The position numbers were made by a program, and so were the translations under genes. The notes under the pieces are model-generated. The model was not told where the DNA came from, did no database searches, and worked only from the letters and a program-made list of their open reading frames with translations. A stretch of DNA of 64,000 nt. Source: Eubacteriales bacterium. Lineage in GTDB: Bacteria > Bacillota > Clostridia > Oscillospirales > CAG-272. Location of the stretch: NCBI GenBank assembly GCA_045597145.1, contig JAZODU010000018.1, positions 24,894-88,893 of the forward strand, read 5' to 3'. Of the stretch, positions 6,286 through 46,302 are shown one piece after another (positions within the stretch are counted from its first letter, which is position 1; each line of letters begins with the position of its first letter).

Positions 6286-6288
6286 TTT

Positions 6289-11299: not shown

Positions 11300-11482
11300 T
11301 CATACCAATCAAACCGCATAAAATCGGGGGTGCTGTCACAAGACGGCTGAGATGGCGATTGCCAAACCCTTTTACCTGATACGGATAATACCGGCGTAGG
11401 GAGATTCTTCTTTTGTTTGGGTACTTACTCTTAACAAAATGATTGACCACACGGAGATTTCGTGCGGTCAATTTTATTTTTT
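11300..11482 (+). promoter_or_regulatory. TPP (THI-box) riboswitch with intrinsic-terminator expression platform
   Basis: Aptamer core CGGGGGUGC...GGCUGAGA...ACCCUUUUACCUGAUACGGAUAAUACCGGCGUAGGGA at about 11322-11403. It is followed by the hairpin ATTGACCACACG/CGTGCGGTCAAT plus a T-run (11440-11482), directly upstream of thiT. Confidence 0.9.
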
Positions 11483-13656: not shown

Positions 13657-14012
13657 ATAGCTCCGCCGGACGGTCGCGCGGTATGTTGCCGAAAGGTATT
13701 ACCGTGAGGAAAGTCCGGGCTTCACAGGACAGGATAGCTGATAACGTCAGCCACGGGTAACCGTCGGGAAAGTGCAACAGAAATAAACCGCCGCCACGCG
13801 CGGTAAGGATGGAAAGGCGAGGTAAGAGCTCACCCGTTCCTATGGTAACATAGGTCCGCTGTAAACCCTATCCGAAGCAACACCCCATGGGAGGCTTGTC
13901 CGGCATATCTCCCGAGGTGGCACGAAACACGCGTTTCGAAGCGTCGCGGTGACGCGGCGCGCAGATTGATGACCGCCCTCGACAGAACCCGGCTTACAGG
14001 CGGAGCTGTATC
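13657..14012 (+). ncRNA. rnpB: RNase P RNA (bacterial M1 RNA)
   Basis: Universally conserved GAGGAAAGUCCGGGC (about 13696-13710) and ACAGAACCCGGCUUA (13982-13996). P1 pairing AUAGCUCCGCC / GGCGGAGCUGUAU defines the ends. The overlapping track ORFs (13424..13777, 13830..14273) are spurious. Confidence 0.9.
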
Positions 14013-21230: not shown

Positions 21231-21307
<77 letters not shown>

Positions 21308-25039: not shown

Positions 25040-26715
25040 AAGACCGACGTCGATTACGACGTATTCATAATTGAAAACGAGTACGTCAAAACGCAGGTCG
25101 TGCCCGCTCTGGGTGGTAAGATCCTGCGCGGCTACGACAAGGTCGGCACGCATGATCTTATTTATTACAACGAGGTCGTCAAGCCCGCGCTGGTCGGCAT
25201 CGCAGATCCTTGGATCTCGGGTGGCATCGAATTTAACTGGTCCCAGCACCACCGCCCCACGACCTACATGCCTCTTGAGGCAGTGATCGAGGAGAACGCA
25301 GACGGCGGCAAGACCGTTTGGACGGGCGAGGTCGAGCCCATGAACCGCATGAAGGGCATGGTAGGCATCACCGTCGACAAGGGTCGCTCCTACATCAAGG
25401 CAAAGGTGCGCGTTTACAACCGCACCGCGCTCCCCCAGCTCTTTATGTGGTGGGCAAACCTTGCCGTTCCCGTAAACAACGACTACCGCACCGTTTTCCC
25501 GCCCGACTGTGAGTGGGTCAACGACCACGACCGCCGCGCAGTTCTTGATTGACCGATCGCAAAGGGCGTTTACAAGACCGCACGTCCCTACAACTTCGGA
25601 GAGGGCACGGATCTGTCGCGCTATGACGCTGTAAAGGTTCCCTCCTCTTATCTGATCTCGCAGGGTCAGTCCGACATGGACTTCATCGCAGGCTACGACA
25701 CGGGGATCAACAAGGGAATTGCTACCGTTGCCAATCATCACATCTCCTCCGGTAAAAAGATGTGGCACTGGGGCATCGGTGATTTCGGCGACATGTGGTG
25801 CTCCAACCTGACCGACGAAAACGGTCCCTACATCGAGCTGATGACCGGCATTTACACCGACAACCAGCCCGACTTTACCTGGATCGCGCCCTACGAGTCC
25901 AAGGCATTTGAGCAGTACTGGTATCCGATCCGCGATATCGGCGAGCCGAAGAACGCATCGATCGACGCCGCGATGAACATGGAGGAGCGCGACGGTGCCC
26001 TCTTCCTCGGCATCAACGTCACGGGCACGTTCAAGAACACCGTTGTGACCGTGAAGAAGGGTGACGAGGTCATCTACACCGAAAAATCGGACATGGATCC
26101 CACGACGTCTTATCTGCGAACGGTTGACATGAAGGGCGCAAAATACAAGGAGCTGACCGCAAGCCTTGTCTGCGAGTGCGGCAAGGAGCTGACCGAGGCA
26201 GGTCGCCTTGACGAGGCAGAGCAGATCTACATGAACGGGGTAAACATGCCCAAGTCCTACGGCGAGGCAAAGACCTTCTTCAATCAGGAGTCGCACATCT
26301 TCTACTATCTTGCAAAGCTTTATGCGAAGATGGGCAAGGCAGACCTTGAAAGAAAGGCGTACGAGAAAGCAGCAATCTACAAGGCGGCGGTTTCCGAGCT
26401 TTCCCTGTTCCGTGCGTGGGCGCTCAAGGCGTTGGGACGCGACGGCGAGGCGTGTGAGGTGCTGGACGAGATGCTCCGCGTTGCCGACAACTTTATCGTC
26501 AATAAGGATCTGCGCACCTACTGCGGTGTCGGCTCTCCCTCCCCATGCCCTTTGAATACGACATCGAAAAGAACAATCTGCGTGACGGTCACATCCTGCG
26601 CGCATTTGCACTTCTCGGCTACGGCAAGGTGGCAGAGGCTGAGGAATCCATCGCGGTCGCTCGCAAGCTTGATCCCAACGATTTTCGCATCCTTGCATTT
26701 GACAAGGTGAAGTGA
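25040..26715 (+). pseudogene. DUF5107/TPR-like protein gene, disrupted (no start, in-frame TGA, frameshift)
   Basis: Homology-like sequence (IIENEYVKTQVVPALGGKIL..., WWANLAVPVNNDYRTVFPPD...) starts about 30 nt from the divergent regulator start, with no start codon. There is an in-frame TGA at 25550-25552 (..RRAVLD*PIAKGVYK..). Track ORFs 24680..25552 and 25676..26710 are in the same frame. A frame change between 26506 and 26545 is needed to reach the plausible C-terminus MPFEYDIEKNNLRDGHILRAFALLGYGKVAEAEESIAVARKLDPNDFRILAFDKVK (stop 26713-26715). Confidence 0.6.
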
Positions 26716-26723
26716 TTTTTTAC

Positions 26724-26753
26724 GAGGGAGACTTTTTGAAAAAAGTCCCCCTC
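26724..26753. repeat. GGGAG/CTTTTT..AAAAAG/CTCCC palindromic element
   Basis: GAGGGAGACTTTTTGAAAAAAGTCCCCCTC; a T8 run follows 11 nt later. Confidence 0.8.
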
Positions 26754-26873
26754 TCGCTCCCCTCTTTTTTTTGTGCGCTGTTCGGCTGGGGCAGAATGTC
26801 CTTCTAACTCGTAAGACGTGGGGGCTTGTCTCCTGCCGTTTGTAAACAATTTTCATTTTTTCAAGCAATCCCC

Positions 26874-26902
26874 TTGCAAAGATTTTCGGTTCATGGTATA
26901 AT
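26874..26902 (+). promoter_or_regulatory. Promoter of the membrane-protein / SGNH / DUF4358 operon
   Basis: TTGCAA (26874-26879), 17 nt ending in TGG, TATAAT (26897-26902). Confidence 0.6.
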
Positions 26903-26936
26903 CTTTTTGATACTGATAAAAATAAGTGAGGACCGT

Positions 26937-27380
26937 ATGAATTCCACTAAAAAGAAAGCAGTAAAAGAAGAACCCTTGAGTTTCTTTCATTTATTGAAAA
27001 GCTGGTTTTGCGGCGGATTGCTCTGGTACGCCGTGATCTCCCTGTTGTGGCTTGTGGCAGGAAGTGCCACGGGCGTGGGCGATAAATTTTTGAACGTGCG
27101 CGCTTTTTTAATGATGTTTCCCTTCGGGCTTTGCATGTCCGCGGCGGGCATACTCTTTTCTTCTCCCAAGATCCGCCGTTGGCTGCGTATGCTCGGGCAC
27201 TACGTGATCACGATCGTTTCGTTCATGCTCTTCATTCTGCTCCCCAACCAAAACGCCGCCGCTCCCTTCAAGGCATCCTTTGTGATGATCCTGATCGTGC
27301 TTTTGACCTTGATCTACTGGTTCCTCTTTTTGTGCGTACATATCTTCAAAACAAAGATCAAACAGCTGTTTGAGGAGTAA
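26937..27380 (+). CDS. Small integral membrane protein, unknown function
   Basis: ATG 26937 (MNSTKKKAVKEEPLSFFHLLKSWF...). Four hydrophobic segments. The track ORF start 26826 lies upstream of the promoter. Confidence 0.6.
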   Translation: MNSTKKKAVKEEPLSFFHLLKSWFCGGLLWYAVISLLWLVAGSATGVGDKFLNVRAFLMMFPFGLCMSAAGILFSSPKIRRWLRMLGHYVITIVSFMLFILLPNQNAAAPFKASFVMILIVLLTLIYWFLFLCVHIFKTKIKQLFEE

Positions 27381-27398
27381 CGCGCAAAGGAGCTTTCC

Positions 27399-28094
27399 AT
27401 GAAACAAATAAAACACCGTCTGACCCTTTTCTTCCTTGCGGTATGCTGTCTGCTTGCCGTCCTGCCGCCCTTGGCACGCGCAGAAGAAAAGCCCTGTCAG
27501 ACGGTGTTTTTCGGTGAGTCCACCACGGCGCACCTCTCGCGCCGCGGTGGCGTGCTGGACACGCCCGAGGGGCGCGCGTGCGTCTGGCGCGACAGCAGCG
27601 GCACGCGTATGCTCTCACGCCGTATTCTCTCCTCCACGGTCGATTTGTACCGTGCGGACGGTACACGGCGGACGGTGTCGCTGACCGAGGCGTTGAAATC
27701 GGTACGCCCTGCGCGCATCGTGCTCTCCTTTGGGCTCAACGGCATCATGGGCTTTATCAAGGACAAGGAGGGCTTTATCGGCGCATACCGCGCGCTGATC
27801 GATGGAGTGCGCGAGCATTCGCCCACCACCGAGATCATCCTGCAATCGGTCTACCCCGTGCGCACGTCGGAGGGCTTTTCCTGTGACGTGGCGACGCTGA
27901 ACGCGCATATCGTAACGCTGAACGCGTGGATCTCCGAGCTGGCACGTGACACGGGAAGCCAATACGCCGACACGGCGTCTGTCTTACGGGCATCGGACGG
28001 CTCGCTCCTTCCCCAATACGACAGCGGCGACGGGATCCACCTGACAAACGAGGCTTACAAGCGGATCTTAGCCTACCTGCAAGCTACATCTTAA
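27399..28094 (+). CDS. Secreted SGNH/GDSL-family hydrolase
   Basis: Signal peptide. Block I VFFGESTTAHL, block III SFGLNG, block V GDGIHLTNEAY. Confidence 0.75.
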   Translation: MKQIKHRLTLFFLAVCCLLAVLPPLARAEEKPCQTVFFGESTTAHLSRRGGVLDTPEGRACVWRDSSGTRMLSRRILSSTVDLYRADGTRRTVSLTEALKSVRPARIVLSFGLNGIMGFIKDKEGFIGAYRALIDGVREHSPTTEIILQSVYPVRTSEGFSCDVATLNAHIVTLNAWISELARDTGSQYADTASVLRASDGSLLPQYDSGDGIHLTNEAYKRILAYLQATS

Positions 28095-28105
28095 AGAAAG
28101 GATGT

Positions 28106-28615
28106 ATGCAAATGAAAAGAACCATAACCGTTTTTTTGATCCTCATCTGCGCGCTTGCGCTGCCCGCCTGCTCTCAAAAAGCCGAATACCGCGACGACGT
28201 TGACGTGACGGCACTCGCCGAGCGCGTGACGAGCGAATTGAACGAGGACACCGATCTGCCGCTGAAATACGTCAAGGACGACACGGGCTTTCTGGAGGAT
28301 TATTTCAAAGCACCCGACTATATCACCGACCACGCCGTGCTTTACGCCGTCTCCACCAACAACATCAACGAAATCGGCATTTACAAGGTCCGAGACGGGC
28401 ATGCGCGCGAGCTGGCAACGCTGCTCAAGACCGATTATCTGAAAGCGTCGTTTGACAAAAACAGCGCGTGGTATGATTCCTATATCCCTATGGAAACGCC
28501 CAAGCTGCGCGACGCCGAGGTGCGCGTGTTCGGCAACTACGTCGTTTATGCGATCCTTGACGCCGACGGGCGTGAGACCGCCTTTGATACCGTGGAGAAT
28601 CTGCTTGAAAAATAA
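28106..28615 (+). CDS. Lipoprotein, DUF4358-like
   Basis: Lipobox LALPAC. The size, the ...INEIGIYKVRDG... segment and the ...VRVFGNYVVYAILD layout resemble DUF4358 as I recall it. Not verified. Confidence 0.55.
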   Translation: MQMKRTITVFLILICALALPACSQKAEYRDDVDVTALAERVTSELNEDTDLPLKYVKDDTGFLEDYFKAPDYITDHAVLYAVSTNNINEIGIYKVRDGHARELATLLKTDYLKASFDKNSAWYDSYIPMETPKLRDAEVRVFGNYVVYAILDADGRETAFDTVENLLEK

Positions 28616-28649
28616 AGAAACCGCCGTGAATTTTGCACGGCGGTTTCTT
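28614..28649 (+). terminator. Terminator of the 26.9-28.6 kb operon (left border of the AT-rich cassette)
   Basis: AAAGAAACCGCCGTG-AATTTTG-CACGGCGGTTTCTT. Confidence 0.75.
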
Positions 28650-28723
28650 ACTTTAAGTGTCTATGCACCGCCACTCCGTGGGGGGACATACTGCCGAGTT
28701 CGAAAAAAAGTTTTGGGAACGAA

Positions 28724-29152
28724 TTATCCTTCAAAATTTTTGTATTTCCTATCGCCCAAAAAAGAAATATCATTTTTCAACATCACGGAGACTATATCAA
28801 TTAACCAAATCACTAAGGCGGGTGTGACAGGAAGCCATATACTAATTCTAAAACCGACTGTAATACTCATTGTAAACATCATTACAATATTTGGAATTAA
28901 AAGAAGAGAACACCAACCAAAAATCACTTGTGCTATCCTATTTCCGCTAAAACGATACAGAAAACCATATACATCAAATAATAGAACTAAAACCACCTTC
29001 ATCGCTCGCGGCATGTCCCGTAGTTTTTTTCCCATTTTCTCACGGAATGTGGGGTTGGGATCGGTTTCATAGGTTATTCCTTCATGCTCAATTTCATCAA
29101 TCGTCACCCGCCCATCATCGTGGAACTCGATTTCATATTCCTTGCGGCTCAT
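28724..29152 (-). CDS. Small membrane protein, no recognisable family (AT-rich cassette, gene 2)
   Basis: Preferred start ATG 29152 (MSRKEYEIEF...) with AGGAGG 6 nt upstream; the track start is 29167. Has a soluble ~45-aa N-terminus, then three hydrophobic segments (AMKVVLVLLFDVYGFLY; IAQVIFGWCSLLLIPNIVMMFTM; ISIWLPVTPALVIWLIDIVSVML). Confidence 0.6.
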   Translation of the reverse strand: MSRKEYEIEFHDDGRVTIDEIEHEGITYETDPNPTFREKMGKKLRDMPRAMKVVLVLLFDVYGFLYRFSGNRIAQVIFGWCSLLLIPNIVMMFTMSITVGFRISIWLPVTPALVIWLIDIVSVMLKNDISFLGDRKYKNFEG

Positions 29153-29163
29153 ACCAAACCTCC

Positions 29164-30135
29164 TCATATCTTCGTTGCTTGAATGTCACAAATCAAACCT
29201 TCCGTTAATGGTAATGGGGATGAAGCACAATCACTGCTCCAATTTTCTAACACATATTTTTCCAGTTCTTCAAATATACTCTGTGCGATTACCTCACACT
29301 CAAGTAATTCCTCCACAAGCCCTGGCATTTTTTGTGAAAAAATATTTTTATGCTTTAATGTCAAAGAAACATCTGGAATAAACATTCCATTTGCCTCATC
29401 TTGATTGTGACGCGTTATTCCCTCTTGCAACGTAGAAATATATCCTTTTTTCCAATAAAAATCAATCATATATACAGATATATAGTTCTTACAATTTGAA
29501 GGAAAGGCTATCAAGTTATAAACTTTTTCTCGAATACGTTGTAATTCATTTTCCACTCTTCGTAATGAACCAAATATTTTCAAAGCTCTTTCTTTTTTCT
29601 CTTCCAGTAATCGCTTTTTGCGATCATACTCCAGCACTGCGATCTCATATTCTTCCATAGCCGTCTTATATTTTGCCGACTCTTCAGCATACCTCCGCTC
29701 ATTGTCAACAATACCTTGATTCCTGCGCTTTATTTCTTCACATTCGTCAAGATACATTTGGTAAGCAGCTTGCCGCCTCGCCCCCACTTGAAAAGGCAAT
29801 GAAAAAATTCCAACAACCAAAGGTATCCAACATATTAACAGACCAATCAATGTAGATGCCAGCGTTACCGCAGCTAAAAAGCATTGATCTCTAAATGATG
29901 AATACTTTCCTTTTTCGTTCTCCTTTACTTTTCTAAGATAATAGTCTTCGTCATAAGGAGGATACGCTTCGATTTCTCGCCAAGTTTTTTGGGGCTCACG
30001 CGGGCGAAGCGGTTCTACTAAATTACCCCAATAGCGGCAAGAGCGCTGGTGCTCCTTTGCGTATAGCAACTCTAAAATATAACAATATGCCTCAATCTGT
30101 TTAACTTTTCCCACTTTCTCTTCCAATGTCGTCAT
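29164..30135 (-). CDS. Membrane-anchored coiled-coil protein, no recognisable family (AT-rich cassette, gene 1)
   Basis: Start ATG 30135 (GGAGGTG RBS). A ~95-aa N-terminal domain, a hydrophobic stretch CFLAAVTLASTLIGLLICWIPLVVGIFSLPF, a highly charged heptad-like region (RRQAAYQMYLDECEEIKRRN...EEKKERALKIF...ENELQRIREK), then a ~110-aa C-terminal domain. Confidence 0.6.
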   Translation of the reverse strand: MTTLEEKVGKVKQIEAYCYILELLYAKEHQRSCRYWGNLVEPLRPREPQKTWREIEAYPPYDEDYYLRKVKENEKGKYSSFRDQCFLAAVTLASTLIGLLICWIPLVVGIFSLPFQVGARRQAAYQMYLDECEEIKRRNQGIVDNERRYAEESAKYKTAMEEYEIAVLEYDRKKRLLEEKKERALKIFGSLRRVENELQRIREKVYNLIAFPSNCKNYISVYMIDFYWKKGYISTLQEGITRHNQDEANGMFIPDVSLTLKHKNIFSQKMPGLVEELLECEVIAQSIFEELEKYVLENWSSDCASSPLPLTEGLICDIQATKI

Positions 30136-30223
30136 TAAAATCACCTCCACGCTTATATTATACACCTATAGTTCAATAATGTCAACCCTTGGATGCTTAA
30201 AATTAATAAAAAAAGCAATATAA

Positions 30224-30239
30224 TTAAACTATAGTTTAA
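30224..30239. promoter_or_regulatory. 16-bp perfect palindrome, candidate Xre operator
   Basis: TTAAACTATAGTTTAA, immediately upstream of the xre RBS. A second CTATAG core lies at 30166-30171 nearer the divergent operon. Confidence 0.5.
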
Positions 30240-30253
30240 AACGAGGTGGAGCT

Positions 30254-30568
30254 ATGGAAGAACTTTTGAAACAAATCGGCGCACGGATTTGCCGTCGGCG
30301 CAAAGAGTTAGGATATACACAAGAACAGCTTGCGGAAATGATCGATGTTTCCATCCAAATGATTTCTAATTTGGAACGCGGTAACAAGGCGATCCGCATT
30401 GAAAATCTTTTAAAACTCAGCACAGTTTTACAGGTCAGCACCGATTATATCTTAACAGGAAAAAGAGAGCAAGCAGACGAGCAAATTCTTTTAAAAAAGA
30501 TTGAATCGTTATCCGAACGAGATTACAACATCATTTCTCAAATGTTGGACTATCTTGGAAAAAATTAA
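30254..30568 (+). CDS. Xre/Cro-type HTH transcriptional regulator
   Basis: IGARICRRRKELGYTQEQLAEMIDVSIQMISNLERGNKAIRIENLLKLSTVLQVSTDYIL is a canonical HTH_3 domain. GAGGTGGA RBS. Confidence 0.85.
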   Translation: MEELLKQIGARICRRRKELGYTQEQLAEMIDVSIQMISNLERGNKAIRIENLLKLSTVLQVSTDYILTGKREQADEQILLKKIESLSERDYNIISQMLDYLGKN

Positions 30569-30585
30569 AAAGATTGCTTTCTATC

Positions 30586-30624
30586 AAAAAAGGAGCAGGT
30601 TCACGCCTGCTCCCGTATCTTTTT
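30586..30624. terminator. Bidirectional terminator (right border of the AT-rich cassette)
   Basis: AAAAAAGGAGCAGG-TTCACG-CCTGCTCC...TCTTTTT. The radical-SAM stop codon (30601-30603) lies in the loop. Confidence 0.7.
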
Positions 30625-31587
30625 CTCATATTTCTTCCCCTGCCACGAGTTGCGGTCGTAAAGAAGCTTGTCAATATCGTTGATCACGGCAGTCTTTTTG
30701 GTGCTCCACAGAGGCGCGAGCAGGTCGTCTGCCTTGCCGTCACCCGTGAGTCTGCCGATCACGGTGTCGGGCGGTAACAGCTCCAGCGCATCTGCCACCA
30801 AGCGAACGTATCGCTCGCGCGCAAGCGGCTCGTAACGTCCGCTTTCGTACATGGCGGCAAGAGGTGTGCCGCGCAGGACGTGCAGCAGGTGAATTTTGAT
30901 CTGATCGGGGTGCAGTGCCGCCACGTCGCGCACGGTCTGCATCATATCGGCGTCGCTCTCGCCCGGAAGCCCGAGGATAATATGCACACAGATATTGATC
31001 CGTCGGTCAGCGCATCGCAGCCGTTCGTATCCCTGCACAAACTGCGCAAAGCTATGCCCCCGATGGATGCGGCGCGCGGTCGCGTCACATGAGGATTGCA
31101 AGCCCAGCTCCACGGTCAGGGTCGTCCGCGCGGCAAGAGAAGCAAGATAGTCCACCACGTCCTCGGGCAGACAATCGGCGCGCGTAGCAATATTGAGCCC
31201 GACGATCCCCTCCTCTGCCAACGCCTCCTCATACAAGGTGCGCAGGCGTTCAAGCGGCGCGTAGGTGTTGGTATGTGCTTGAAAATACGCAATGCAGCGC
31301 GTCGTGTCCCACTTGCGCGCAAACGCCGCCTTTTGCAGGGCGATCTGCTCGCGCACGGGCAGGACGCTGTCGGGTGCGAAATCGCCGCTTCCGCGGTCGG
31401 AGCAATAGATACAGCCACCCGTACCGCATCTGCCGTCGATATTCGGGCAGGTCAGCCCCGCATCGATGGGCAGCTTGGCGCACTTGCCGCCATATGTACT
31501 GCGCAAATAGTAGTCGTACGTATAGTACCGCTTATTCGTATCGCTGTTCGGGTACGGATTGGTATCCGCTTGCGTCAATTTTGCCAT
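30601..31587 (-). CDS. TIGR01212 (YhcC-like) family radical SAM protein
   Basis: Start ATG 31587 (AAAGGAAG RBS). KRYYTYDYYLRSTYGGKCAKLPIDAGLTCPNIDGRCGTGGCIYCS matches the atypical Cys-rich N-terminus of this family. Confidence 0.8.
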   Translation of the reverse strand: MAKLTQADTNPYPNSDTNKRYYTYDYYLRSTYGGKCAKLPIDAGLTCPNIDGRCGTGGCIYCSDRGSGDFAPDSVLPVREQIALQKAAFARKWDTTRCIAYFQAHTNTYAPLERLRTLYEEALAEEGIVGLNIATRADCLPEDVVDYLASLAARTTLTVELGLQSSCDATARRIHRGHSFAQFVQGYERLRCADRRINICVHIILGLPGESDADMMQTVRDVAALHPDQIKIHLLHVLRGTPLAAMYESGRYEPLARERYVRLVADALELLPPDTVIGRLTGDGKADDLLAPLWSTKKTAVINDIDKLLYDRNSWQGKKYEKKIREQA

Positions 31588-32275
31588 AGCGCTTCCTTTC
31601 TGTTTGCTTTTTTCCGCCGCACACGCACCACAAAACGAACGCAACGGCAACGAGGACGGTCGGGATCAGGGCGTAGAGCGTGGGGTGTGCGGTGGTGGCA
31701 AGCATTGCTTCCATGCCGCCAAGCAGGCGCACAACGCCGCACACGAAGAACAAAACGGCGGACAGACGCGAAAAGAGCGTCTGCGGCAGGCGTTTGCCAA
31801 GCACCGTCCCCACCAAAAGTCCGATGAGTCCCGAGAGGAAGAGTCCTCCCGTCGCCCCCAACAGCACGGCAAGTGCCGAGTGAGTGCCGCCTGCCGCAAG
31901 TGCCACGGCGGAAAGCTGCGTCTTATCGCCCAGCTCCGCCAGAAAATAGGCGCCGAAAACAGCGGGAATCGCGTGCTTTTTGCGGTACGTATGCGCGTTT
32001 TCCTCGGCATCCTCCTCCAAGAGTGCCGCGCGCGCGAAGAACAGAAACGCTACCGCCGAGGCGATCGCCACAAGGCTCGTCGGCAGATACCGTCCGATCA
32101 GCCCGCCAACCGTTACCGCCAGCAAATTGAGCACGCAGATCGCCGAGAATGCGCCCAAAAGAATGTCGCGCACGCGGTACTGTGCGGTCAGCGCCGCCAT
32201 CAGAAACTGGGATTTATCTCCCATTTCCGCCAAAAAGATCATCAAAAAGCTCTGCAACAGAACGCCCTTCTCCAT
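31532..32275 (-). CDS. UPF0016/TMEM165/GDT1-family cation (Mn2+/Ca2+) transporter
   Basis: Two copies of the E-x-G-D-K-[ST] signature (FLAEMGDKSQ, FLAELGDKTQ) within a duplicated 3-TM topology. The 3' end overlaps the next gene start by 56 nt. Confidence 0.85.
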   Translation of the reverse strand: MEKGVLLQSFLMIFLAEMGDKSQFLMAALTAQYRVRDILLGAFSAICVLNLLAVTVGGLIGRYLPTSLVAIASAVAFLFFARAALLEEDAEENAHTYRKKHAIPAVFGAYFLAELGDKTQLSAVALAAGGTHSALAVLLGATGGLFLSGLIGLLVGTVLGKRLPQTLFSRLSAVLFFVCGVVRLLGGMEAMLATTAHPTLYALIPTVLVAVAFVLWCVCGGKKQTERKRYGKIDASGYQSVPEQRYE

Positions 32276-32361
32276 CAGTTCACCTCACGGTCGTGATACG
32301 AAAAAACTGCCGCAGAGATCGGCAGTCTTTTCAAAAAAGTAATACGTCCTGTGTTTTCGGG

Positions 32362-33651
32362 TCAATTGGCACTTGCCAAAAGCTTCTCGACCACCGCGAT
32401 CCGCACGCAAAGCGTGAGCACCGCCATCGCCTGCGCAAGGCTCTTTGTGTTCGGGAAGGTGGGCGCGATGCGGATATTGCTGTCATAAGGATCACAGCGA
32501 TACGGATAGGTCGCACCGACGTCGGTCAGCTTCACGCCCGCCTCGCGGCAAAGCTCATACGTGCGCTTCGCGCACCCGTCCATGACGTAAAGGCTGACGA
32601 AATAGCCGCCCAAGGGATCGGTCCAACGTGCCGCGCCCGTATCGCCGAGATCTTTTTTCAGGGTGTCCAGAACGATCTCAAACTTGGGGCGGATCATATC
32701 TGCCAGCTCGCTCATGTGGTGCAGCACGTTTTCTGCCGAGCCGAAATAGCGCACGTGGCGCATCTGGTTGATCTTATCAAAGCCGATGGTCTGCGCGCCG
32801 ATGATGGGCATGATCTGCACCAGATTCTCGCGCGACGCCGCCATGATCGCCACACCCGAGCCCGGGAAGGAGATCTTGGAGGTGGACGCAAAATAAAACA
32901 CACGGTTGCCGTTGCCCGCGTCCTCGCACGCCTTGAAGATATCCGCCAGCGCATCCTTGCGATCGGGATAGAGGTCGTGTACCGCGTATGCGTTATCCCA
33001 GAAAATACGGAAATCCTTCGCCGCGGTCTTCATTTGACCGAAGCGGCGCACGGTTTCGTCGGAATAGGTGATACCGTCGGGGTTGGAGTACTTGGGACAG
33101 CACCAGATACCCTTGACGCTCGGGTCGGACGCCGCAAGCTTTTCAACCGCGTCCATGTCGGGTCCCGTGGGAGTCATGGCAACGGGCAGCATAGTGATAC
33201 CGAGCGACTCACAGATCGCAAAATGGCGGTCGTAACCGGGTGCGGGGCAGATAAACTTGATCTTCTCCTCGCGACACCACGGACGCTCGCTGTCGCACAC
33301 ACCGTAAAGCAGTGCGCGCGCCACCGCGTCGTACATTAGATTCAGCGAGGAGTTGCCGCCGATAAACAGCTTTTCCTCGGGGATATCCAAAAGATTCGCA
33401 AACAGCCGCTTTGCCTCCTTGATGCCGTCCAGCACGCCGTAGTTGCGGCAATCCAAGCCGTCCTCGGTGCGGCAATCGTACGAGGAATCGATGCAGTGCA
33501 GCATACCCTGCAAAAGATCCAGCTGATCGGCACCGGGCTTTCCGCGCGACAGATCCAGCGAAAGCTTTCTCGCCTTTGCCGCTTCATATTCCGTTTGCAG
33601 GCTCGCAAGCGTTTCTTGCAACGCTTCCCTGCTCATTTTTGCAAATTCCAT
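32362..33651 (-). CDS. PLP-dependent aminotransferase (class I/II fold)
   Basis: Start ATG 33651 (AAGGAGA RBS, 6-nt spacing). [13 protein letters not shown]..., [11 protein letters not shown], and the PLP-Lys context [13 protein letters not shown]. Confidence 0.75.
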
Positions 33652-33754
33652 GAGGGTTCTCCTTATCATTCAACGTATGAATGCTAACAGTATATCATAT
33701 TCCTTGCGCGATTGCAATATGTTTTTGCATATTTTTCAAAAAAACTTGCATTTT

Positions 33755-36190
33755 TTATCGGACATCTCCGATTTTTTCCCAAAACCCTCGCACAATTTCT
33801 GCAAGTTCCATTGCATTTCCTGCATATTCCACGTGATTCCAGTGTTCCGGGAACAAGGCTCTCGTGCGCGGATCGGCATATCGGTCGTCGATCAGCACCA
33901 CCACGCCGCAGTCGCTCTCGCGTCGGATCACGCGGCCCGCCGCCTGAAGCACGCGGTTCATGCCGGGGTACACGTAGGCGTAGTCGAAGCCGTGCTCTCG
34001 CGTCGTTTCGTAGTGGTCACGCAGAATGTTGCGCTCGTTGGAAAGCCCCGGAAGTCCCGTGCCCACGATCACGCTGCCGATCAACCGCTTGCCGGGCAGG
34101 TCCACGCCCTCGGAAAAGGAACCGCCCAGCACGCAAAAGCCGACGCGCAGAGTGCCGTCCGAGGCAAAGGAATCCAAAAATTTTTCCTTCTCGCTCATGC
34201 TCATGCCGCGCGTCTGTCGCACGACTGTCACCGCAGGATATTTCTTTTCAAATTGCTCCGCGACCTTTTCCATGTATTCGTAAGACGGAAAATACGCGAT
34301 ATAGTTGCCGCGCCTTGCCGACACGGAGGCGGCGATGAGCGAGGCGAGCTTTTTGTAGCTTTTGTCGCGATCCTCGTATCGTGTGCTGACCCCCGTGACC
34401 GCCGCCAGACAGAAGTTTTCGGGATCGAACGGGCACGGCAAAGAGATGCGCACAGCTCCCTTTCCGCCGCCGAGAATATCCGCAAAATAATCGATCGGTG
34501 TCAGCGTTGCCGAAAACAGAACTGCGGCATGAGCGCGTGAAAGGCACGCATCCAGCACGTGCGAGGGATCAAGACAGATCAAGCGCACGGTGCGGCGGTC
34601 GCCCGCAAGCTCGATAAAGGTCAGGAAGGACGAGTCGTAATATTCGGAGATCACCTCAAAGTGCTTGAGCTTTGCGCAAAGGGCGTAAACGGCAAGCTCC
34701 GCGGGTGCTCCTCTGTGTGTGCGAAGCCACGCATCCGCTGCCCGGCGCACCAATGCCACCAAGCGGTGAAAATCCTCCATGGCGCTGCTGTTGACGTAGT
34801 ATCCGTGCTCAACGCCGTCCCCGTCCTTTTCGATCGTGTCGCGGCACAAGCGGCGAAAGCCCTGCATGGTAACGCTCAATTTTTCCAGTACCTCGCGCAG
34901 GGGATCCTCCTCGGGGAGCTGTCCCCAAAGTGCCGCCACGTCCTCGCTGCAAAGCTCTGCCGAGTACATGGCGCGCGCGCGGTCTGCAAGGTTGTGTGCC
35001 TCGTCCACCAAAAGCACGTGTCGCGCGTGGGGATCCGCTTCCCCGCCGAAATAGCGCCGCAGATAGACCTGCGGGTCAAAGGCATAGTTATAGTCACATA
35101 TGACGATGTCGCAAAACTCGGACAGCTCCAATTGAAGCTCATACGGGCAAATGCCGTATTTCTGCGCCACCGCCTCGATCCGCTCGCGCGTATATCCGAA
35201 CCGCCGGGAGAGCAATTCGCACACCGCGTGCGGGGCTTTGTCGTAAAACGCCTTGGCGTGCGGACAATCCAACGGATTGCAATGGCGCGAGATCCCTGCG
35301 GGATCCTCGCGCGCCGCCGCGTTGGCGCAGATCTGGTCGCGCGCGGTGAGAACGGCGGTGCGCAGATGCGCCCCCGCCTCAAAGATTTTCGCCGCCGCCG
35401 CAAACGCCTCGCGGCGCGTTGCCGCCTTGGCGGTCAGGTAGAAGATCTTGTCGCAATACCCCTCCCCCACGCAACGCACGGCGGGATAGAGCGTGGACAC
35501 GGTCTTGCCGATCCCCGTGGGGGCTTCGGCAAAGAGACGCTTACCCGCCTTGATGTCGCGGTAGCACTCCTTGAGCAGGATGTCCTGCCCCTCGCGCACG
35601 GAGGAATACGGGAATCGTCCGCTCGTGACCGACGGTCGCAGTACCGTTTCGCGCTCGCAAAGGATCCGCGCGCGGTATTCCACGCGCGAGAGCAGATCAA
35701 AATAGAAGCTTTTCAGTGCCTCGGCGGTGTGTCGGGTCGTTACGTATTTGGTTTTGCCGTCCTCAAGCCGATAGTAGGTCAGGCGGGTCTGCACCTCGTC
35801 AAGTCCCTTGTCGCGGCACAAAAAATAGGCGTAGCATTTCGCCTGTGCGTCGTGCATGGGGACAGGGGGGCGGTCAAAGGCATGACCCGAAACGGTCTTG
35901 ATCTCGTCCACCGTCATGGGCTCGGTTGCGATCACGCCGTCCGCGCGACCGCTGACCTCAAAAGCAAGGTCATGAAAGCACGTGGTATTGCGCATAGCGA
36001 CCTCGGGCGTATACATAGCCCCCGCCTCGCTTTGCAGCTTGCGGTGCACCGCCGCGCCGACTGCCGCACGCTCGCTTGACAGCCGCTTCATCATACCCGG
36101 GCGCAGATCCAAGTCCCCGCCGCTCGCAGCATACGCGCACAGCTCTGTGACCGACATCACGACCGCCGCACGCTCGGTATCGTATCGCAT
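33755..36190 (-). CDS. DinG/XPD-like Fe-S helicase fused to an N-terminal PD-(D/E)XK nuclease domain
   Basis: Start ATG 36190 (GGAGG RBS). Nuclease motifs GRADGV...VDEIKT...QAKCYAY. Walker A AEAPTGIGKT. Cys cluster C-x(n)-C-x3-C (..ICANAAAREDPAGISRHCNPLDCPH..). DEAH box (VDEAHNL). Helicase C-terminal motifs. Confidence 0.8.
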   Translation of the reverse strand: MRYDTERAAVVMSVTELCAYAASGGDLDLRPGMMKRLSSERAAVGAAVHRKLQSEAGAMYTPEVAMRNTTCFHDLAFEVSGRADGVIATEPMTVDEIKTVSGHAFDRPPVPMHDAQAKCYAYFLCRDKGLDEVQTRLTYYRLEDGKTKYVTTRHTAEALKSFYFDLLSRVEYRARILCERETVLRPSVTSGRFPYSSVREGQDILLKECYRDIKAGKRLFAEAPTGIGKTVSTLYPAVRCVGEGYCDKIFYLTAKAATRREAFAAAAKIFEAGAHLRTAVLTARDQICANAAAREDPAGISRHCNPLDCPHAKAFYDKAPHAVCELLSRRFGYTRERIEAVAQKYGICPYELQLELSEFCDIVICDYNYAFDPQVYLRRYFGGEADPHARHVLLVDEAHNLADRARAMYSAELCSEDVAALWGQLPEEDPLREVLEKLSVTMQGFRRLCRDTIEKDGDGVEHGYYVNSSAMEDFHRLVALVRRAADAWLRTHRGAPAELAVYALCAKLKHFEVISEYYDSSFLTFIELAGDRRTVRLICLDPSHVLDACLSRAHAAVLFSATLTPIDYFADILGGGKGAVRISLPCPFDPENFCLAAVTGVSTRYEDRDKSYKKLASLIAASVSARRGNYIAYFPSYEYMEKVAEQFEKKYPAVTVVRQTRGMSMSEKEKFLDSFASDGTLRVGFCVLGGSFSEGVDLPGKRLIGSVIVGTGLPGLSNERNILRDHYETTREHGFDYAYVYPGMNRVLQAAGRVIRRESDCGVVVLIDDRYADPRTRALFPEHWNHVEYAGNAMELAEIVRGFWEKIGDVR

Positions 36191-42553: not shown

Positions 42554-45184
42554 ATGAAATGGACATCTCTCAACGACCTGCGTGAGAAGTACCTCGCGTT
42601 CTTTGAATCCAAGGGACATCTGCGTCTTCCCTCTTATCCGCTGGTTCCCATCAACGACAAATCCCTCCTGCTGATCAACTCGGGCATGGCACCCATGAAG
42701 AAGTTCTTCACGGGCGAGGAGGAGCCGCCGCGCACGCGCGTGACCACCTGCCAGAAGTGCATCCGCACGCCCGACCTTGAGCGTGTCGGTCACACCGCAC
42801 GCCACGGTACGTTTTTTGAAATGCTCGGAAACTTCTCCTTTGGCGACTATTTCAAGGAAGAAGCCATTCCGTGGGCTTGGGAATTTCTGACCGAAACGCT
42901 GGAGATCCCGAAGGATCTGCTCTGGCCCTCCATTTACGAGGAGGACGAGGAGGCTTACGGCATCTGGGCGAACAAGATCGGTGTGGATCCCTCTCACATC
43001 GTGCGCCTTGGCAAGGCGGACAACTTCTGGGAGCACGGTACGGGTCCCTGCGGTCCCTGCTCCGAGATCTACTTCGATCGCGGCATCAAGTACGGCTGCG
43101 GCTCTCCCGACTGCAAGCCCGGCTGTGATTGCGACCGCTTTATGGAGATCTGGAACAACGTGTTCTCTCAGTTCAACAACATGGGCGACGGCACTTATAC
43201 CGAGCTGGCGCAGAAAAACATCGATACGGGTATGGGACTGGAGCGTCTTGCGTGCGTCATGCAGGGCGTGAACAACATGTTCGAGGTCGACACGATCCGC
43301 AAAGTACTTGATAACGTCTGCGCGATCGCGGGCAAGGAGTACGGCAAGGACAAGAACGACGACATCTCCATCCGCGTGATTACCGACCACATCCGCTCCG
43401 CGACCTTTATGATCTCGGACGGCGTCATTCCCTCCAACGAGGGTCGCGGCTACGTGCTTCGCCGCATTCTCCGCCGCGCTTGCCGTCACGGCAAGCTCCT
43501 TGGCATCAACCGCTCCTTCCTGCCCGAGCTTGGCGTGATCGCCATCGGCGAATCCGAGGGCGCATACCCCGAGCTTGCTGAAAAGAAGGATTATATCCTC
43601 AAGGTCGTTGCGATGGAGGAGGAGCGCTTTGACGCTACCATCGACGCAGGCCTTGCCATTCTGAACACCATGGTCGGGGACGCAAAGCAAGCAAACGCGA
43701 CCGCGCTTTCGGGCGAGGACGTGTTCAAGCTGTACGACACCTTCGGCTTCCCCATTGACCTGACGCGCGAGATTGCGGAGGAAGCAGGGCTGTCGATCGA
43801 CGAGGCTCGCTTCACGGAGCTGATGCAGGAGCAAAAGGTTCGCGCGCGCGAGGCGCGCGCCAATATCAGCGGTTGGTCGAGTGCCTCCAAAAATCTGTTG
43901 GCTGACCTGCCCGCAACCGCGTTTTTCGGCTACGACGCTCTTTGCGGCAGCGCAAAGGTTCTGGCGATCCTTGCCGACGACATGAGCGTAAGCGAGATCA
44001 GCGAGGGCGAATGCTCCGTGATCCTTGACGCAACGCCCTTCTACGGCGAGGGCGGCGGTCAGATCGGTGACACGGGTGTTATCAAAACCGCCAATGCGGA
44101 ATTGACCGTGACCGACACCAAAAAGACCGACGGCGTTTACATTCACCTGTGCTCCATTCTCTCGGGTGCCGTTAAGGTCGGCGACACCGTGACCACCGAG
44201 GTCGACGTAACCCGCCGCGCAGCGATCATGAGAAACCACTCCGCGTGCCACCTGCTCCAAAGTGCGCTCCGCCGTGTGCTTGGCAACCACGTTGAGCAGT
44301 CGGGCTCTTACGTTTCCGACAGCGTTTGCCGCTTCGACTTTACTCACTTTGCGGCAATGACCGCAGACGAGATCGCACGTGTTGAAGCGATCGTCAACGG
44401 CGAGATCCTTGCGGGTCAGATCGGTTCCATGACCGAGATGCCCATTGACGAGGCAAAGAAGCTGGGTGCTATGGCTCTGTTTGGAGAAAAGTACGGCAAG
44501 ATCGTGCGCGTGGTGCGCATGGGCGACAATTCCGTAGAGTTCTGCGGAGGCACGCACGTGGACAACACCGCAAAGATCGGTATGTTCAAGATCCTTTCCG
44601 AGTCCTCCGTTGCCGCAGGCGTGCGCCGTATCGAGGCGACCACGGGCGAGGGGATTCTCAAGCTGCTGGCTGAAAAGAACACGCTGATCGCAGACACCGC
44701 AAAGGAAATGAAGGTGCAAAAGCCCGCAGATCTTGCAAAACGTGCGGCACAGATGCAGAACGAGCTCGCGGCTATGAAGCGTGAGATCGATGCGCTGAAC
44801 GCAAAGATCGCGGCGTCGCAGATCGATTCGATCGTCGCATCTGCCGAAACCGTGGGTACGGTACGCCTGATCACCCATGATCTGGGTGCGATGGATGCCG
44901 GTGCTGCAAGAACGCTTGCCGACGAGATCAAGGCGCGCTATGACGATATCGTGGCGGTGCTTTCGATCCACGACGATACAAAGCTGAACTTCATCGCAGT
45001 TGCGGGCAAGGATGCCGTGGCACACGGTGCACACGCAGGAAAGCTCGTGGGAGCTGTGGCAGCTGTAACCGGCGGCAAGGGCGGCGGACGCCCCGACAAC
45101 GCAATGGCAGGCGGCAAGGATCCCGCAAAAATCGACGAGGCACTGCGTGCCGCAAAGGATCTTTTGCTCCCTTCTTTGAAATAA
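42554..45184 (+). CDS. alaS: Alanine--tRNA ligase
   Basis: Start ATG 42554 (MKWTSLNDLREKYLAFFESKGH). FEMLGNFSFGDYFK. Editing-domain HxxxH (HSACHLL) and CGGTHV motifs. Confidence 0.95.
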   Translation: MKWTSLNDLREKYLAFFESKGHLRLPSYPLVPINDKSLLLINSGMAPMKKFFTGEEEPPRTRVTTCQKCIRTPDLERVGHTARHGTFFEMLGNFSFGDYFKEEAIPWAWEFLTETLEIPKDLLWPSIYEEDEEAYGIWANKIGVDPSHIVRLGKADNFWEHGTGPCGPCSEIYFDRGIKYGCGSPDCKPGCDCDRFMEIWNNVFSQFNNMGDGTYTELAQKNIDTGMGLERLACVMQGVNNMFEVDTIRKVLDNVCAIAGKEYGKDKNDDISIRVITDHIRSATFMISDGVIPSNEGRGYVLRRILRRACRHGKLLGINRSFLPELGVIAIGESEGAYPELAEKKDYILKVVAMEEERFDATIDAGLAILNTMVGDAKQANATALSGEDVFKLYDTFGFPIDLTREIAEEAGLSIDEARFTELMQEQKVRAREARANISGWSSASKNLLADLPATAFFGYDALCGSAKVLAILADDMSVSEISEGECSVILDATPFYGEGGGQIGDTGVIKTANAELTVTDTKKTDGVYIHLCSILSGAVKVGDTVTTEVDVTRRAAIMRNHSACHLLQSALRRVLGNHVEQSGSYVSDSVCRFDFTHFAAMTADEIARVEAIVNGEILAGQIGSMTEMPIDEAKKLGAMALFGEKYGKIVRVVRMGDNSVEFCGGTHVDNTAKIGMFKILSESSVAAGVRRIEATTGEGILKLLAEKNTLIADTAKEMKVQKPADLAKRAAQMQNELAAMKREIDALNAKIAASQIDSIVASAETVGTVRLITHDLGAMDAGAARTLADEIKARYDDIVAVLSIHDDTKLNFIAVAGKDAVAHGAHAGKLVGAVAAVTGGKGGGRPDNAMAGGKDPAKIDEALRAAKDLLLPSLK

Positions 45185-45207
45185 TTTAATTTTTTTTGAA
45201 AAAACTA

Positions 45208-45236
45208 TTGACAACGCACCGCAAAAGTGCTATAAT
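45208..45236 (+). promoter_or_regulatory. Promoter of lipoprotein paralog 1
   Basis: TTGACA (45208-45213), 17 nt ending in TGC, TATAAT (45231-45236). Confidence 0.65.
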
Positions 45237-45297
45237 GCAAATGTGGTATTTCACAAAAATATCACAAAAAAATCACATTTAAAGGAGAATTTTCATC

Positions 45298-45723
45298 ATG
45301 AAAAAGTTCACCAAAATTCTGGCTCTGAGCCTCGCTCTCATCATGTCCGTTATGATGCTTGCTTCCTGCGCAATTTTCGGTGCAAAGCCCGCTAAGGATC
45401 CCGAAAAGGCTAAAGATGCACTGAAGGACAACGATTACAATGTTCAGTTGATCGACGACAAGGATGCCCTTGAAGGGTACGCTGAAATGAACGAGTGTGG
45501 CAAACTCACCGCGGTTGTTGTTGGTGCTAATGAGGACGAAGAGTTCATCTCCATTCTCTACTTCGAAGATGCATCTGATGCTAAGAAAGCTTATGAGGAT
45601 TCTAAGGAAGAGCTCAAAGAGATGCAGGAAGAAGACGATGACTACAAGGACTATGTCTGCGGCAGATCCGGCAAGATGGTTTGGATGGCTTCCTCCAAGG
45701 ACGCTGTTAAGGCAGCAAAATAA
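45298..45723 (+). CDS. Small lipoprotein, paralog 1 of 3, unknown function
   Basis: MKKFTKILALSLALIMSVMMLASC lipobox. AAAGGAGA RBS. Acidic, Lys-rich mature part. See the finding at 45185-46669. Confidence 0.75.
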   Translation: MKKFTKILALSLALIMSVMMLASCAIFGAKPAKDPEKAKDALKDNDYNVQLIDDKDALEGYAEMNECGKLTAVVVGANEDEEFISILYFEDASDAKKAYEDSKEELKEMQEEDDDYKDYVCGRSGKMVWMASSKDAVKAAK

Positions 45724-45776
45724 TTTGAACATAAAAAAGAAAGTCGCTTCGGCGGCTTTCTTTTTTGCGCTTTCTC

Positions 45777-45805
45777 TTGACAATCATACCAAACGGTGCT
45801 ATAAT
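45777..45805 (+). promoter_or_regulatory. Promoter of lipoprotein paralog 2
   Basis: TTGACA (45777-45782), 17 nt ending in TGC, TATAAT (45800-45805). It is preceded by the paralog-1 terminator hairpin (about 45733-45768). Confidence 0.65.
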
Positions 45806-45861
45806 GTGAAAGGAGCGCATCAATCATCACCCAAAATCATATTTAAAGGAGAATTTTCATC

Positions 45862-46302
45862 ATGAAAAAGCTCACCAAAATCCTTGCCCTCTCGCTGGCA
45901 CTGATCATGTCCGTTATGATGCTCGCTTCTTGCTCCATCTTCGGTGCGAAGCCTGCTAAAGATTTCGAAGACGCAAAAAAGGCTCTTGAAGATAACGATT
46001 ACGACATTGGCTACGCCGACAAGAATCTTGACGGTGATCCGGAAGCAAGAATCTATGCAAGCAAGAAGGATGAGTTTATCACCATTTATTGGTATAAGGA
46101 TGTAGCAGATGCAAAGGACGCATACAAAGATGCCAAGGAAGATCTGAAAAAGATGAAGGAAGATCTCAAGGCCATGCAGGATGACCTTAACGAGGACGAT
46201 TATAAGGGATACGAGGAAGAGCTTGACAACTACGTGATCGGCAGATCCGGCAAGATGGTTTGGATGGCTTCCTCCAAGAACGCTGTCAAGGCAGCAAAAT
46301 AA
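45862..46302 (+). CDS. Small lipoprotein, paralog 2 of 3
   Basis: MKKLTKILALSLALIMSVMMLASC. The C-terminus GRSGKMVWMASSKNAVKAAK is nearly identical to paralog 1. Confidence 0.75.
   Translation: MKKLTKILALSLALIMSVMMLASCSIFGAKPAKDFEDAKKALEDNDYDIGYADKNLDGDPEARIYASKKDEFITIYWYKDVADAKDAYKDAKEDLKKMKEDLKAMQDDLNEDDYKGYEEELDNYVIGRSGKMVWMASSKNAVKAAK

Follow-up and report, generated by a model that had tools for sequence, protein, structure and literature searches.

A block of AT-rich DNA at 28616-30590 of the 64,000-nucleotide stretch analysed here (contig JAZODU010000018.1 of an Eubacteriales bacterium; the whole stretch is hereafter called the window) carries a regulator gene, xre, and a divergently oriented operon, gpA-gpB, encoding two membrane proteins. 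Judged from its sequence, this cassette is a self-contained genetic switch with its cargo, and is one of a rare family exchanged among metagenome-assembled genomes (MAGs) of uncultured Clostridia. Roles in abortive infection, exclusion or toxin/immunity, which a preliminary description of the same DNA had put forward, are plausible for it. A conflict-type membrane module that is tightly repressed and conditionally expressed, whether it acts in abortive infection, in exclusion or in a toxin-like manner, is the explanation we tentatively favour, at somewhat less than an even chance.

A rare family of three-gene cassettes

The cassette in the window comprises the following elements:

28724-29152, minus strand: gpB, 142 amino acids (open reading frame (ORF) list, hydropathy and seven-member alignment A4)
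29159-29164, minus strand: AGGAGG ribosome-binding site of gpB, overlapping the last base of the gpA stop codon (29164-29166)
29164-30135, minus strand: gpA, 323 amino acids (ORF list and family alignment A3)
30142-30148, minus strand: GGAGGTG ribosome-binding site of gpA, 6 nucleotides before the ATG
30157-30185, minus strand: P_AB, predicted promoter of gpA-gpB, TTGACA-N17-TATAAT, 12 of 12 consensus positions (promoter scan)
30163-30176, minus strand: O2, candidate operator half-palindrome TTGAACTATAGGTG within the P_AB spacer, forming a direct repeat (D5) and an inverted repeat (I15) with O1
30197-30224, plus strand: P_xre, predicted promoter of xre, TTAAAA-N16-TATAAT, 10 of 12 positions, back-to-back with P_AB (promoter scan)
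30224-30239, no strand: O1, candidate operator, perfect 16-bp palindrome TTAAACTATAGTTTAA overlapping the P_xre -10 hexamer and the predicted start site
30254-30568, plus strand: xre, 104 amino acids (Pfam HTH_3, E = 4.9e-17, residues 15-66)

No family had been recognised for either membrane protein in the preliminary description. This holds for curated families, none of which matches gpA or gpB, but neither protein is an orphan: both come from a rare family without a name, made up of about 30 clusters (50% identity) and recurring as a three-gene cassette. A word-indexed search of 5.8 billion proteins returned one homologue each for gpA and gpB, both on L001, a 2.2-kb contig that is likewise AT-rich and agrees with the window in layout, palindrome and DUF4358 neighbour; when the search was repeated with the family profile, at least one further homologue was found. 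An exhaustive HMMER scan of 1.84 billion representatives gave 32 proteins at E ≤ 1e-3, 27 of which were at E ≤ 1e-10. The clusters hold only 1-3 members each, and none of the 20 gpA-family entries looked up carries a name.

All typical loci retrieved (L024, L025, L026-L029, L030-L032, L034/L035, L036/L037 and L042-L046) encode a divergent HTH_3 protein of 102-105 residues, gpA and a small hydrophobic protein of 121-168 residues. The small third protein is recognised by a hidden Markov model built from gpB relatives (E = 1e-31 to 1e-61), and gpB homologues thus defined adjoin gpA in eight distinct gene-pair versions (14 ORFs including near-identical contigs). Overall, gpA is accompanied by a gpB homologue and a divergent Xre-type regulator in nearly all loci examined. 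The association of the conserved gpA core with a gpB homologue extends to locus L041, where gpA is reduced to a 172-residue core and is still followed by gpB; some gpA relatives, of 95-172 residues, consist of this core only.

The intact three-gene unit was seen at no fewer than six insertion sites, and its neighbours vary by locus and are housekeeping genes. They include genes for Ldh and a transglutaminase-like protein, DUF1576 and homoserine O-succinyltransferase (HTS), a PHP-domain protein and a 2-hydroxyacid dehydrogenase, an S1-like protein, and ribosomal protein L33 (with secE-nusG) and a peptidyl-prolyl isomerase. All cassettes are AT-rich (GC content 0.32-0.40, against 0.45-0.61 in their flanks), and diverged genomes (L030, L036 and L034) have kept the cassette at syntenic sites.

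Two variants lie at the edge of the family. A variant operon without an adjacent Xre gene, found in L041 (3282-4906) and L038 (7380-8939), has an extra membrane protein of 198-225 residues upstream of gpA, and the C-terminal motif APNGxY...W is common to the two loci. P0035, the gpA relative that diverges most (332 residues; L039, 2794-4336, and also L040), is accompanied by a divergent 99-residue protein with a weak HTH_3 match, and no gpB homologue was found near it within the contig.

A compact switch in fixed register

The xre-gpA intergenic region spans 118 bp and was correctly described at the outset as a divergent control region with a perfect 16-bp palindrome (30224-30239) and a second CTATAG core (30166-30171). 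The palindrome O1 occurs once in the window, where 0.04 occurrences would be expected by chance. Measured centre to centre, O1 and O2 lie 63 bp from each other in the window (repeat D5), which corresponds to about six helical turns.

When nine loci were aligned on the -35 hexamer of P_AB, all nine shared the -10 hexamer, a 17-bp spacer and the placement of O1 and O2, with O2 falling in the same columns throughout (consensus TTAAWCTATAGG). L036 departs in its -35 hexamer (TTGACT, against TTGACA in the other eight), and L033 in its ribosome-binding site (GGAAGTG, against GGAGGTG in the other eight). The P_xre elements ATTTTAAGCAT and TTATAT are kept in most related loci. In its general form, the switch motif reads GGTTGACA-N17-TATAAT, with CTNNAGG inside the spacer. 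The switch is thus far more conserved than its cargo, as gpA across the same loci is just 20-55% identical. The perfect palindrome and the half-site in fixed register at nine loci suggest that O1 and O2 are Xre operators, and the control region would be a compact bidirectional switch in which Xre represses both promoters, probably in a cooperative manner.

The assignment of xre as an Xre/HTH_3 regulator was borne out, its HTH_3 domain scoring 62.1 bits where the cut-off is 23. The protein is of the Cro/CI type and has a conserved helix at its C terminus (LSERDYxxxxxxVDY), and its nearest solved structures are ImmR of ICEBs1 and C2 of phage P22. Identity to the window protein is 90% in L001, 59-66% in six other gpA cassettes and 49% in L033. 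More specific assignments fall short: the NCBIfam RstR model (NF041951) scores 66.5 bits against a cut-off of 80, by which membership in the RstR repressor family was rejected, and the DicA model scores 57.5 bits against 101. Matches to HipB/Y4mF-type and PezA antitoxin models are also sub-threshold, and numerous generic HTH models match equally well.

The regulatory logic is already known in kind, being that of a Cro/CI-type switch over an accessory operon. As in P22 C2, ICEBs1 ImmR and Escherichia coli DicA, a small HTH_3 repressor sits beside divergent back-to-back promoters, with candidate palindromic operators at both its own promoter and the divergent one. Unlike in those systems, however, Xre lacks an S24 autocleavage domain and an ImmA/CapP-type partner protease, appears to control two membrane proteins rather than cro/ant or excision genes, and is located off any phage or integrative and conjugative element. 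Likeness to the HTH-regulated systems in PADLOC, namely CapH-regulated cyclic oligonucleotide-based antiphage signalling systems (CBASS), the candidate PDC-M69 and restriction-modification control proteins, is confined to the regulator (PDC-M69A, 8e-16; CapH, 1e-12; both near full length); the cassette has no CapP-like protease, cyclase, nuclease or methylase.

The same switch is also found with other cargo. In L033 (688-2012; metagenome contig ERZ827104 NODE-1631), an Xre protein 49% identical to that of the window and a switch in register with both operators are joined to a gene for a Cys-rich protein of 288 residues that bears a lipoprotein-like signal sequence and matches nothing in Pfam, and the locus is again richer in AT than the DNA on either side. 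Thus placed, the switch seems to be a portable unit that serves more than one cargo.

Membrane cargo, recombination and the insertion site

Two membrane proteins on the minus strand had been predicted, and both predictions were upheld: gpA contains one hydrophobic stretch of about 37 residues and gpB two or three hydrophobic segments. gpA begins with a variable helix (residues 1-45), a Pro-rich linker and a YPPYDExxYxRK motif, followed by a hydrophobic hairpin of about 37 residues (83-119) containing CWIP and then by the motif RRxAYxxYxxECEEI. Beyond this motif come about 70-85 residues of coiled coil and a C-terminal helical domain (206-323), the secondary structure being taken from a low-confidence AlphaFold2 model. 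Across the 23 sequences of alignment A3, the conserved core consists of YPxYDExxYxKAK, a hydrophobic stretch of 32-48 residues, usually with the central CWIP turn, and RRxAYxxYxxECEEI. Lys and Arg residues flanking the hydrophobic stretch number 100 on one side and 97 on the other over the 23 sequences, supporting a membrane hairpin that would leave both soluble parts of gpA in the cytoplasm.

gpB has a short N-terminal soluble head (MSxKEYE..., tDPTxRE) and the conserved motifs FDxYGxLYRFxxN and WLIDxxS (alignment A4, 7 members). The membrane cores of gpA and gpB are the most conserved parts of the cargo. The AGGAGG of gpB, which had been placed immediately 5' of the gpA stop codon, is indeed present but overlaps the last base of that codon and extends 3' on the transcript. 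This overlap points to translational coupling of gpA and gpB; in L001, L025 and L030, the gpA stop and gpB start codons themselves overlap.

Two domain assignments were considered for these proteins and rejected. TM2 domains carry GxxGxHRFYLG ... WWxxD and two hydrophobic helices joined by a short linker, a pattern that gpB recalls in YGxLYRFxxN ... WLIDxxS; TM2 (PF05154) was unreported in an hmmscan of seven gpB homologues against Pfam up to E = 10, and gpB is not taken as a member. DUF4407 (PF14362) was matched only by P0035, at 24.7 bits over 56 transmembrane residues against a gathering threshold of 31.3, and by none of the 23 aligned gpA members.

Comparison of the window with L001 separates the switch and the host flank from the cargo:

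Xre: amino-acid identity 90%, 4-fold-site differences 0.41
DUF4358 (flank): amino-acid identity 79%, 4-fold-site differences 0.47
gpA: amino-acid identity 54%, 4-fold-site differences 0.71
gpB: amino-acid identity 57%, 4-fold-site differences 0.67

At 4-fold sites the cargo has significantly more differences than Xre and the flank combined (Fisher p = 0.003), indicating that the cargo alleles are older or faster-evolving than the switch and the host flank. Nucleotide identity between the two loci, about 85% up to a point just within the start of gpA, falls there to about 62%, and outside L001 gpA is only 19-28% identical to the window protein. The syntenic pair L030 and L036 shows the same order (Xre 84%, flanking genes 68-74%, gpA 43% identical), so that in same-site pairs Xre is conserved equally to or above the flanking host genes (90% versus 79%; 84% versus 68-74%).

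Loci L026 and L046 occupy the same site and show the reverse relation. Their cassettes are 95-100% identical in nucleotide sequence, with synonymous divergence (dS) of 0.09 in gpA and 0.05 in gpB, whereas the left flank is 60-80% identical and flank dS is 0.7-1.2, indicating that a recent recombination tract carried the cassette across lineages. Taken with the L001 comparison, these sequence patterns indicate that the cassette and its cargo are exchanged by recombination. The ratio of nonsynonymous to synonymous divergence (dN/dS) in this pair is 0.43 for gpA, 0.18 for gpB and 0.03-0.11 for the neighbouring genes. Fourteen of the 29 amino-acid changes in gpA fall within its first 57 residues (binomial p = 2e-4), a region that has 3 synonymous changes besides. 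Between L036 and L042, gpA shows 5 nonsynonymous changes and no synonymous one. The gpA N-terminus thus appears fast-evolving and is possibly diversifying. That the cassette is non-functional DNA was rejected in view of gene order, reading frames and motifs kept across about 30 clusters, and of the gpB dN/dS of 0.18.

The borders of the cassette in the window were resolved against the neighbouring host genes:

28106-28615, plus strand: DUF4358 gene (Pfam 2.9e-9)
28615-28649, no strand: left border hairpin with a 14-bp stem (terminator scan)
30591-30614, no strand: right border hairpin GGAGCAGGTTCACGCCTGCTCC, enclosing the radical-SAM stop codon (terminator scan)
right of the cassette, minus strand: radical-SAM gene, with its stop codon within the right hairpin

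The abrupt change in composition and the two bounding hairpins of the preliminary description were both recovered. Its 60-base GC counts are reproduced (20/60 at 29401-29460, 15/60 at 29461-29520 and 39/60 at 30721-30780), and the terminator scan places the hairpins at the positions listed. GC content is 37.8% in the block at 28616-30590, compared with 55.3% to the left and 55.8% to the right; the sliding-window profile falls to 0.31-0.42 precisely from one hairpin to the other, and the lowest-GC kilobase of the window lies inside the block. GC content at third codon positions is 0.33-0.40 in xre, gpA and gpB versus 0.73 in the adjoining DUF4358 gene, and the shift is one of codon choice, unexplained by amino-acid composition.

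Relatives of the insertion site, collected via the DUF4358 protein, include empty ones. In L004 and L010, from related MAGs, the DUF4358 and radical-SAM genes converge across a gap of only about 60-75 bp. In the closest species representative, L002 (DUF4358 74% identical), the DUF4358 stop codon is directly followed by GGAGCAGGCTCACGCCTGCTCC, which corresponds to the right-side hairpin of the window cassette. The right hairpin is host-derived and bidirectional. The left hairpin, by its sequence able to act as a bidirectional terminator for DUF4358 (plus) and gpB (minus), is missing from L002 in the junction alignment with L002, L004 and L010, and is thus probably part of the insert. The check on the orthologous junction that had been proposed hence came out in favour of an insert, and the cassette is an insertion at a polymorphic site that is occupied or empty in different relatives. 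The earlier statement that it was horizontally acquired is true, but a recent one-off event does not fit the occupied same site in L001, the syntenic sites elsewhere and the recombination between lineages.

The same junction seems to accept different inserts. In L003 (6575-8070) it holds two other minus-strand genes, for proteins of 241 and 257 residues, which by eye we take to be a CpsD/CapB-type tyrosine kinase (Walker A GEGKST) and a Wzz-like chain-length determinant.

Possible roles and rival explanations

From this arrangement we infer the following course of events. Xre dimers would bind O1 and O2, 63 bp apart on the same face of the DNA; binding at O1, over the xre start site, would give autoregulation, and binding at O2, in the spacer of the consensus promoter P_AB, would keep the coupled gpA-gpB operon silent. 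Once Xre is inactivated by some signal, the strong promoter and strong ribosome-binding sites would produce a burst of gpA and gpB. gpA would be anchored by its conserved helical hairpin, with the N-terminal helix, coiled coil and C-terminal domain in the cytoplasm, and gpB would be its small polytopic partner. The conserved membrane cores of the two proteins may form a complex that is the effector and disturbs or remodels the membrane, and the fast-evolving cytoplasmic parts of gpA may set specificity.

A consensus promoter that carries a candidate operator within the spacer, coupled translation from strong ribosome-binding sites and a pair of membrane proteins fit a product that is kept off and then acts quickly on the membrane. 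A conflict function, which might also take the form of conditional growth arrest, is favoured because the family is rare and patchy, has foreign composition, is exchanged between lineages, and combines fast-evolving cargo with an ultra-conserved regulator. Presence/absence polymorphism in relatives was also counted in its favour, as was a TIR gene 2.5 kb from the cassette in L046. This gene encodes a 600-residue TIR_2-domain protein (Pfam 7.5e-8; 5645-7447), lies between lysA and DUF1576 and is absent from the syntenic locus L026. Accessory or defence genes may have a local insertion hotspot here.

Several observations weigh against a conflict function. Known defence, toxin, holin and exclusion proteins showed no homology to gpA or gpB in the library searches, and Foldseek searches of PDB and BFVD returned no match with E < 0.26, a result of little weight given the poor models. 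Xre lacks both a sensor domain and a cleavage domain, and it has no protease as a partner. Housekeeping genes surround the cassette at most long-contig loci, the TIR_2 gene near L046 being the sole exception in a small sample. Defence systems are usually constitutive or lightly repressed, whereas the design of the cassette implies tight silencing. The elevated dN/dS of gpA and the clustering of changes at its N-terminus could alternatively reflect relaxed constraint, and the rate comparisons come from few locus pairs, with dS saturated in the older ones.

The searches of gpA and gpB against known families agree with one another. No match explaining the window proteins was found in Pfam, NCBIfam, PHROGs or PADLOC; 23 gpA relatives searched against subsets of Pfam, PADLOC and PHROGs gave scattered coiled-coil noise only, and seven gpB relatives searched against subsets of Pfam and PHROGs gave scattered noise with no consistent family. 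In PADLOC-DB 2.0, the best match of gpA had E = 0.035 and gpB had none, and the matches of the 23 relatives were scattered single-member coiled-coil ones. PDB profile searches with alignments A3 and A4 returned just coiled-coil or repeat matches. The AlphaFold2 models of gpA and gpB were built on two-sequence alignments and reached a mean predicted local distance difference test (pLDDT) score of 60 and 51. The libraries and literature searched contained no description of the cargo families, of the fixed three-gene cassette or of its spread without mobility genes.

A more specific form of the conflict explanation, which we regard as possible but doubtful, is that the cassette is a new conflict system of uncultured Clostridia MAGs in which a gpA sensor gates gpB effectors, with a portable Xre switch and spread by flank recombination. 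gpA would then be a hairpin-anchored sensor with a hypervariable N-terminal helix and gpB a new family of small membrane effectors; the same Xre switch could carry other surface cargo, and the cassette would spread between species without mobility genes.

Of the rival explanations, the one that survives best, although we consider it somewhat unlikely, is a module of host envelope physiology: a Psp/ESCRT-III-like membrane-stress or remodelling pair, or a modulator of division or sporulation, switched by Xre under stress. It would account for the retention of the cassette at the syntenic sites of L030, L036 and L034 with housekeeping neighbours, and it suits both gpA as a membrane-anchored coiled-coil protein and the lack of defence-island context in the loci examined. 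A regulator divergent from a membrane-protein operon is also the arrangement of pspF/pspABCDE and lexA/yneA. The best, non-significant Foldseek matches of gpA are to BAR/eisosome and ESCRT-III-like helical proteins (Lsp1, PACSIN and CdvB2; E ≥ 0.26 and TM-scores ≤ 0.23 for the pLDDT 60 model, with E = 4.4-9.8 and a TM-score of about 0.1 for CdvB2), and the likeness of gpA to PspA/IM30/ESCRT-III and BAR-like proteins consists of long helices and membrane association. However, none of the 23 gpA members matches PspA_IM30 (Pfam) or another stress family. Moreover, the family has an extremely sparse, patchy distribution (about 30 clusters among 1.84 billion proteins, with empty sites in close relatives), its cargo evolves several-fold faster than neighbouring genes and is exchanged across lineages, and its AT-rich codon usage shows no drift towards that of the host. 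Rarity, fast cargo, exchange and foreign codons together would be unusual for a core physiological function.

Less probable is a stand-alone addiction or toxin-immunity module that spreads selfishly, in which one membrane protein is toxic and the other neutralises it, or Xre serves as antidote by repression. A design that puts strong ribosome-binding sites behind a tightly repressed consensus promoter would suit such a module, as would the strict co-occurrence and translational coupling of gpA and gpB, the selfish-element composition with exchange across lineages, and the sub-threshold matches of Xre to HipB/Y4mF-type and PezA antitoxin models. Those matches are offset by the equally good ones to many generic HTH models, and Xre is divergent from, rather than co-transcribed with, the supposed toxin, unlike in classical type II systems. 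The library searches detected no toxin family, gpB alone is under purifying selection (dN/dS 0.18), and nothing shows toxicity of gpA or gpB. A type II toxin-antitoxin system with an Xre/HipB antitoxin was rejected on the same grounds of divergent orientation, no toxin family in gpA or gpB and sub-threshold antitoxin models.

The preliminary description had also considered a relic of a prophage immunity region, and a decayed lysogeny module of a prophage or integrative element, with a CI-like repressor and a superinfection-exclusion or RexAB-like pair left behind, is now very unlikely. What recommends it is the Cro/CI-type repressor with ICEBs1 ImmR and P22 C2 as nearest solved relatives, the matches of Xre to RstR and DicA subfamily models under their cut-offs, the AT-rich composition, and gene sizes and layout that resemble lambda cI-rexA-rexB, in which a 279-residue protein is paired with a 144-residue protein of four transmembrane segments. 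The likeness to lambda RexA/RexB-like pairs is one of logic only: a pair of about 300 and 140 residues, AT-rich, with a polytopic small protein and a fast-evolving larger one, stands beside a CI-like repressor. No sequence similarity to RexA/RexB was detected (PADLOC, PHROGs), and gpA itself is membrane-anchored. In addition, gpA-gpB lies outside a prophage, and is divergent from and apparently repressed by Xre, whereas RexAB, Sie and Ltp are co-expressed with the repressor.

The distribution of the cassette speaks against such a relic. gpA, gpB and the switch motif are absent from 50,697 phage records (INPHARED), 72,556 plasmid records (PLSDB) and IMG/VR, as is a close Xre relative; a search for gpA and gpB in metagenome and viral contigs via back-translated peptides gave no matches, nor did tblastn of gpA against phages and plasmids. 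The best relatives of Xre are 53% identical over 63% of the protein in phages and 44% identical over 95% in plasmids, and an IMG/VR scan with the Xre profile found one match, at 32% identity. No phage or integrase gene flanks the cassette at any of at least 10 loci, and the unit is intact in at least six housekeeping contexts, which is not expected from the independent decay of larger elements. The initial impression that integrase, transposase and flanking direct repeats are missing was likewise sustained: none of these enzymes was apparent in the ORF list for 26000-33500, and integrase, transposase and relaxase genes are missing from the ORF and gene lists of the window and related loci, with no convincing flanking or attachment-site (att) repeats. 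A phage lysis cassette was rejected, there being no lysin gene at any locus and no PHROGs match for gpB; two gpA relatives gave separate single-member coiled-coil matches to Rz-like spanin families in PHROGs. The weight left by the conflict-type explanation and these three rivals falls to something not considered.

On the present sequence evidence, the cassette can be regarded as a well-defined candidate system. If it does encode a conditional membrane effector pair, two families unannotated in databases would be added to bacterial conflict and defence systems, from Clostridia MAGs such as are obtained from gut samples, a setting in which these systems have been little charted; a plain envelope-stress function would bring a modest annotation gain only. 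The cassette also shows how a small islet without a mobility gene keeps its foreign composition while being swapped across species at fixed chromosomal sites. The compact, conserved Xre switch with more than one cargo could help to find further cargo genes, and could possibly be used as a tight genetic switch for Clostridia.

Elsewhere in the window, Rfam matches to class A RNase P RNA (13658-14012, 234.6 bits), a thiamine pyrophosphate (TPP) riboswitch (11316-11419, 76.4 bits) and a transfer RNA (21231-21304) indicate a cellular, non-phage context. A second, smaller GC dip (0.39-0.44) at 26700-27150 covers an intergenic region and the start of a gene for a small membrane protein (26826-27380) with a weak ABC2_membrane_3 match, located just upstream of the SGNH hydrolase and DUF4358 pair, and further dips lie at 45001-46000 (0.457 over 1 kb) and 33450-33900 (about 0.44 over 300 bp).

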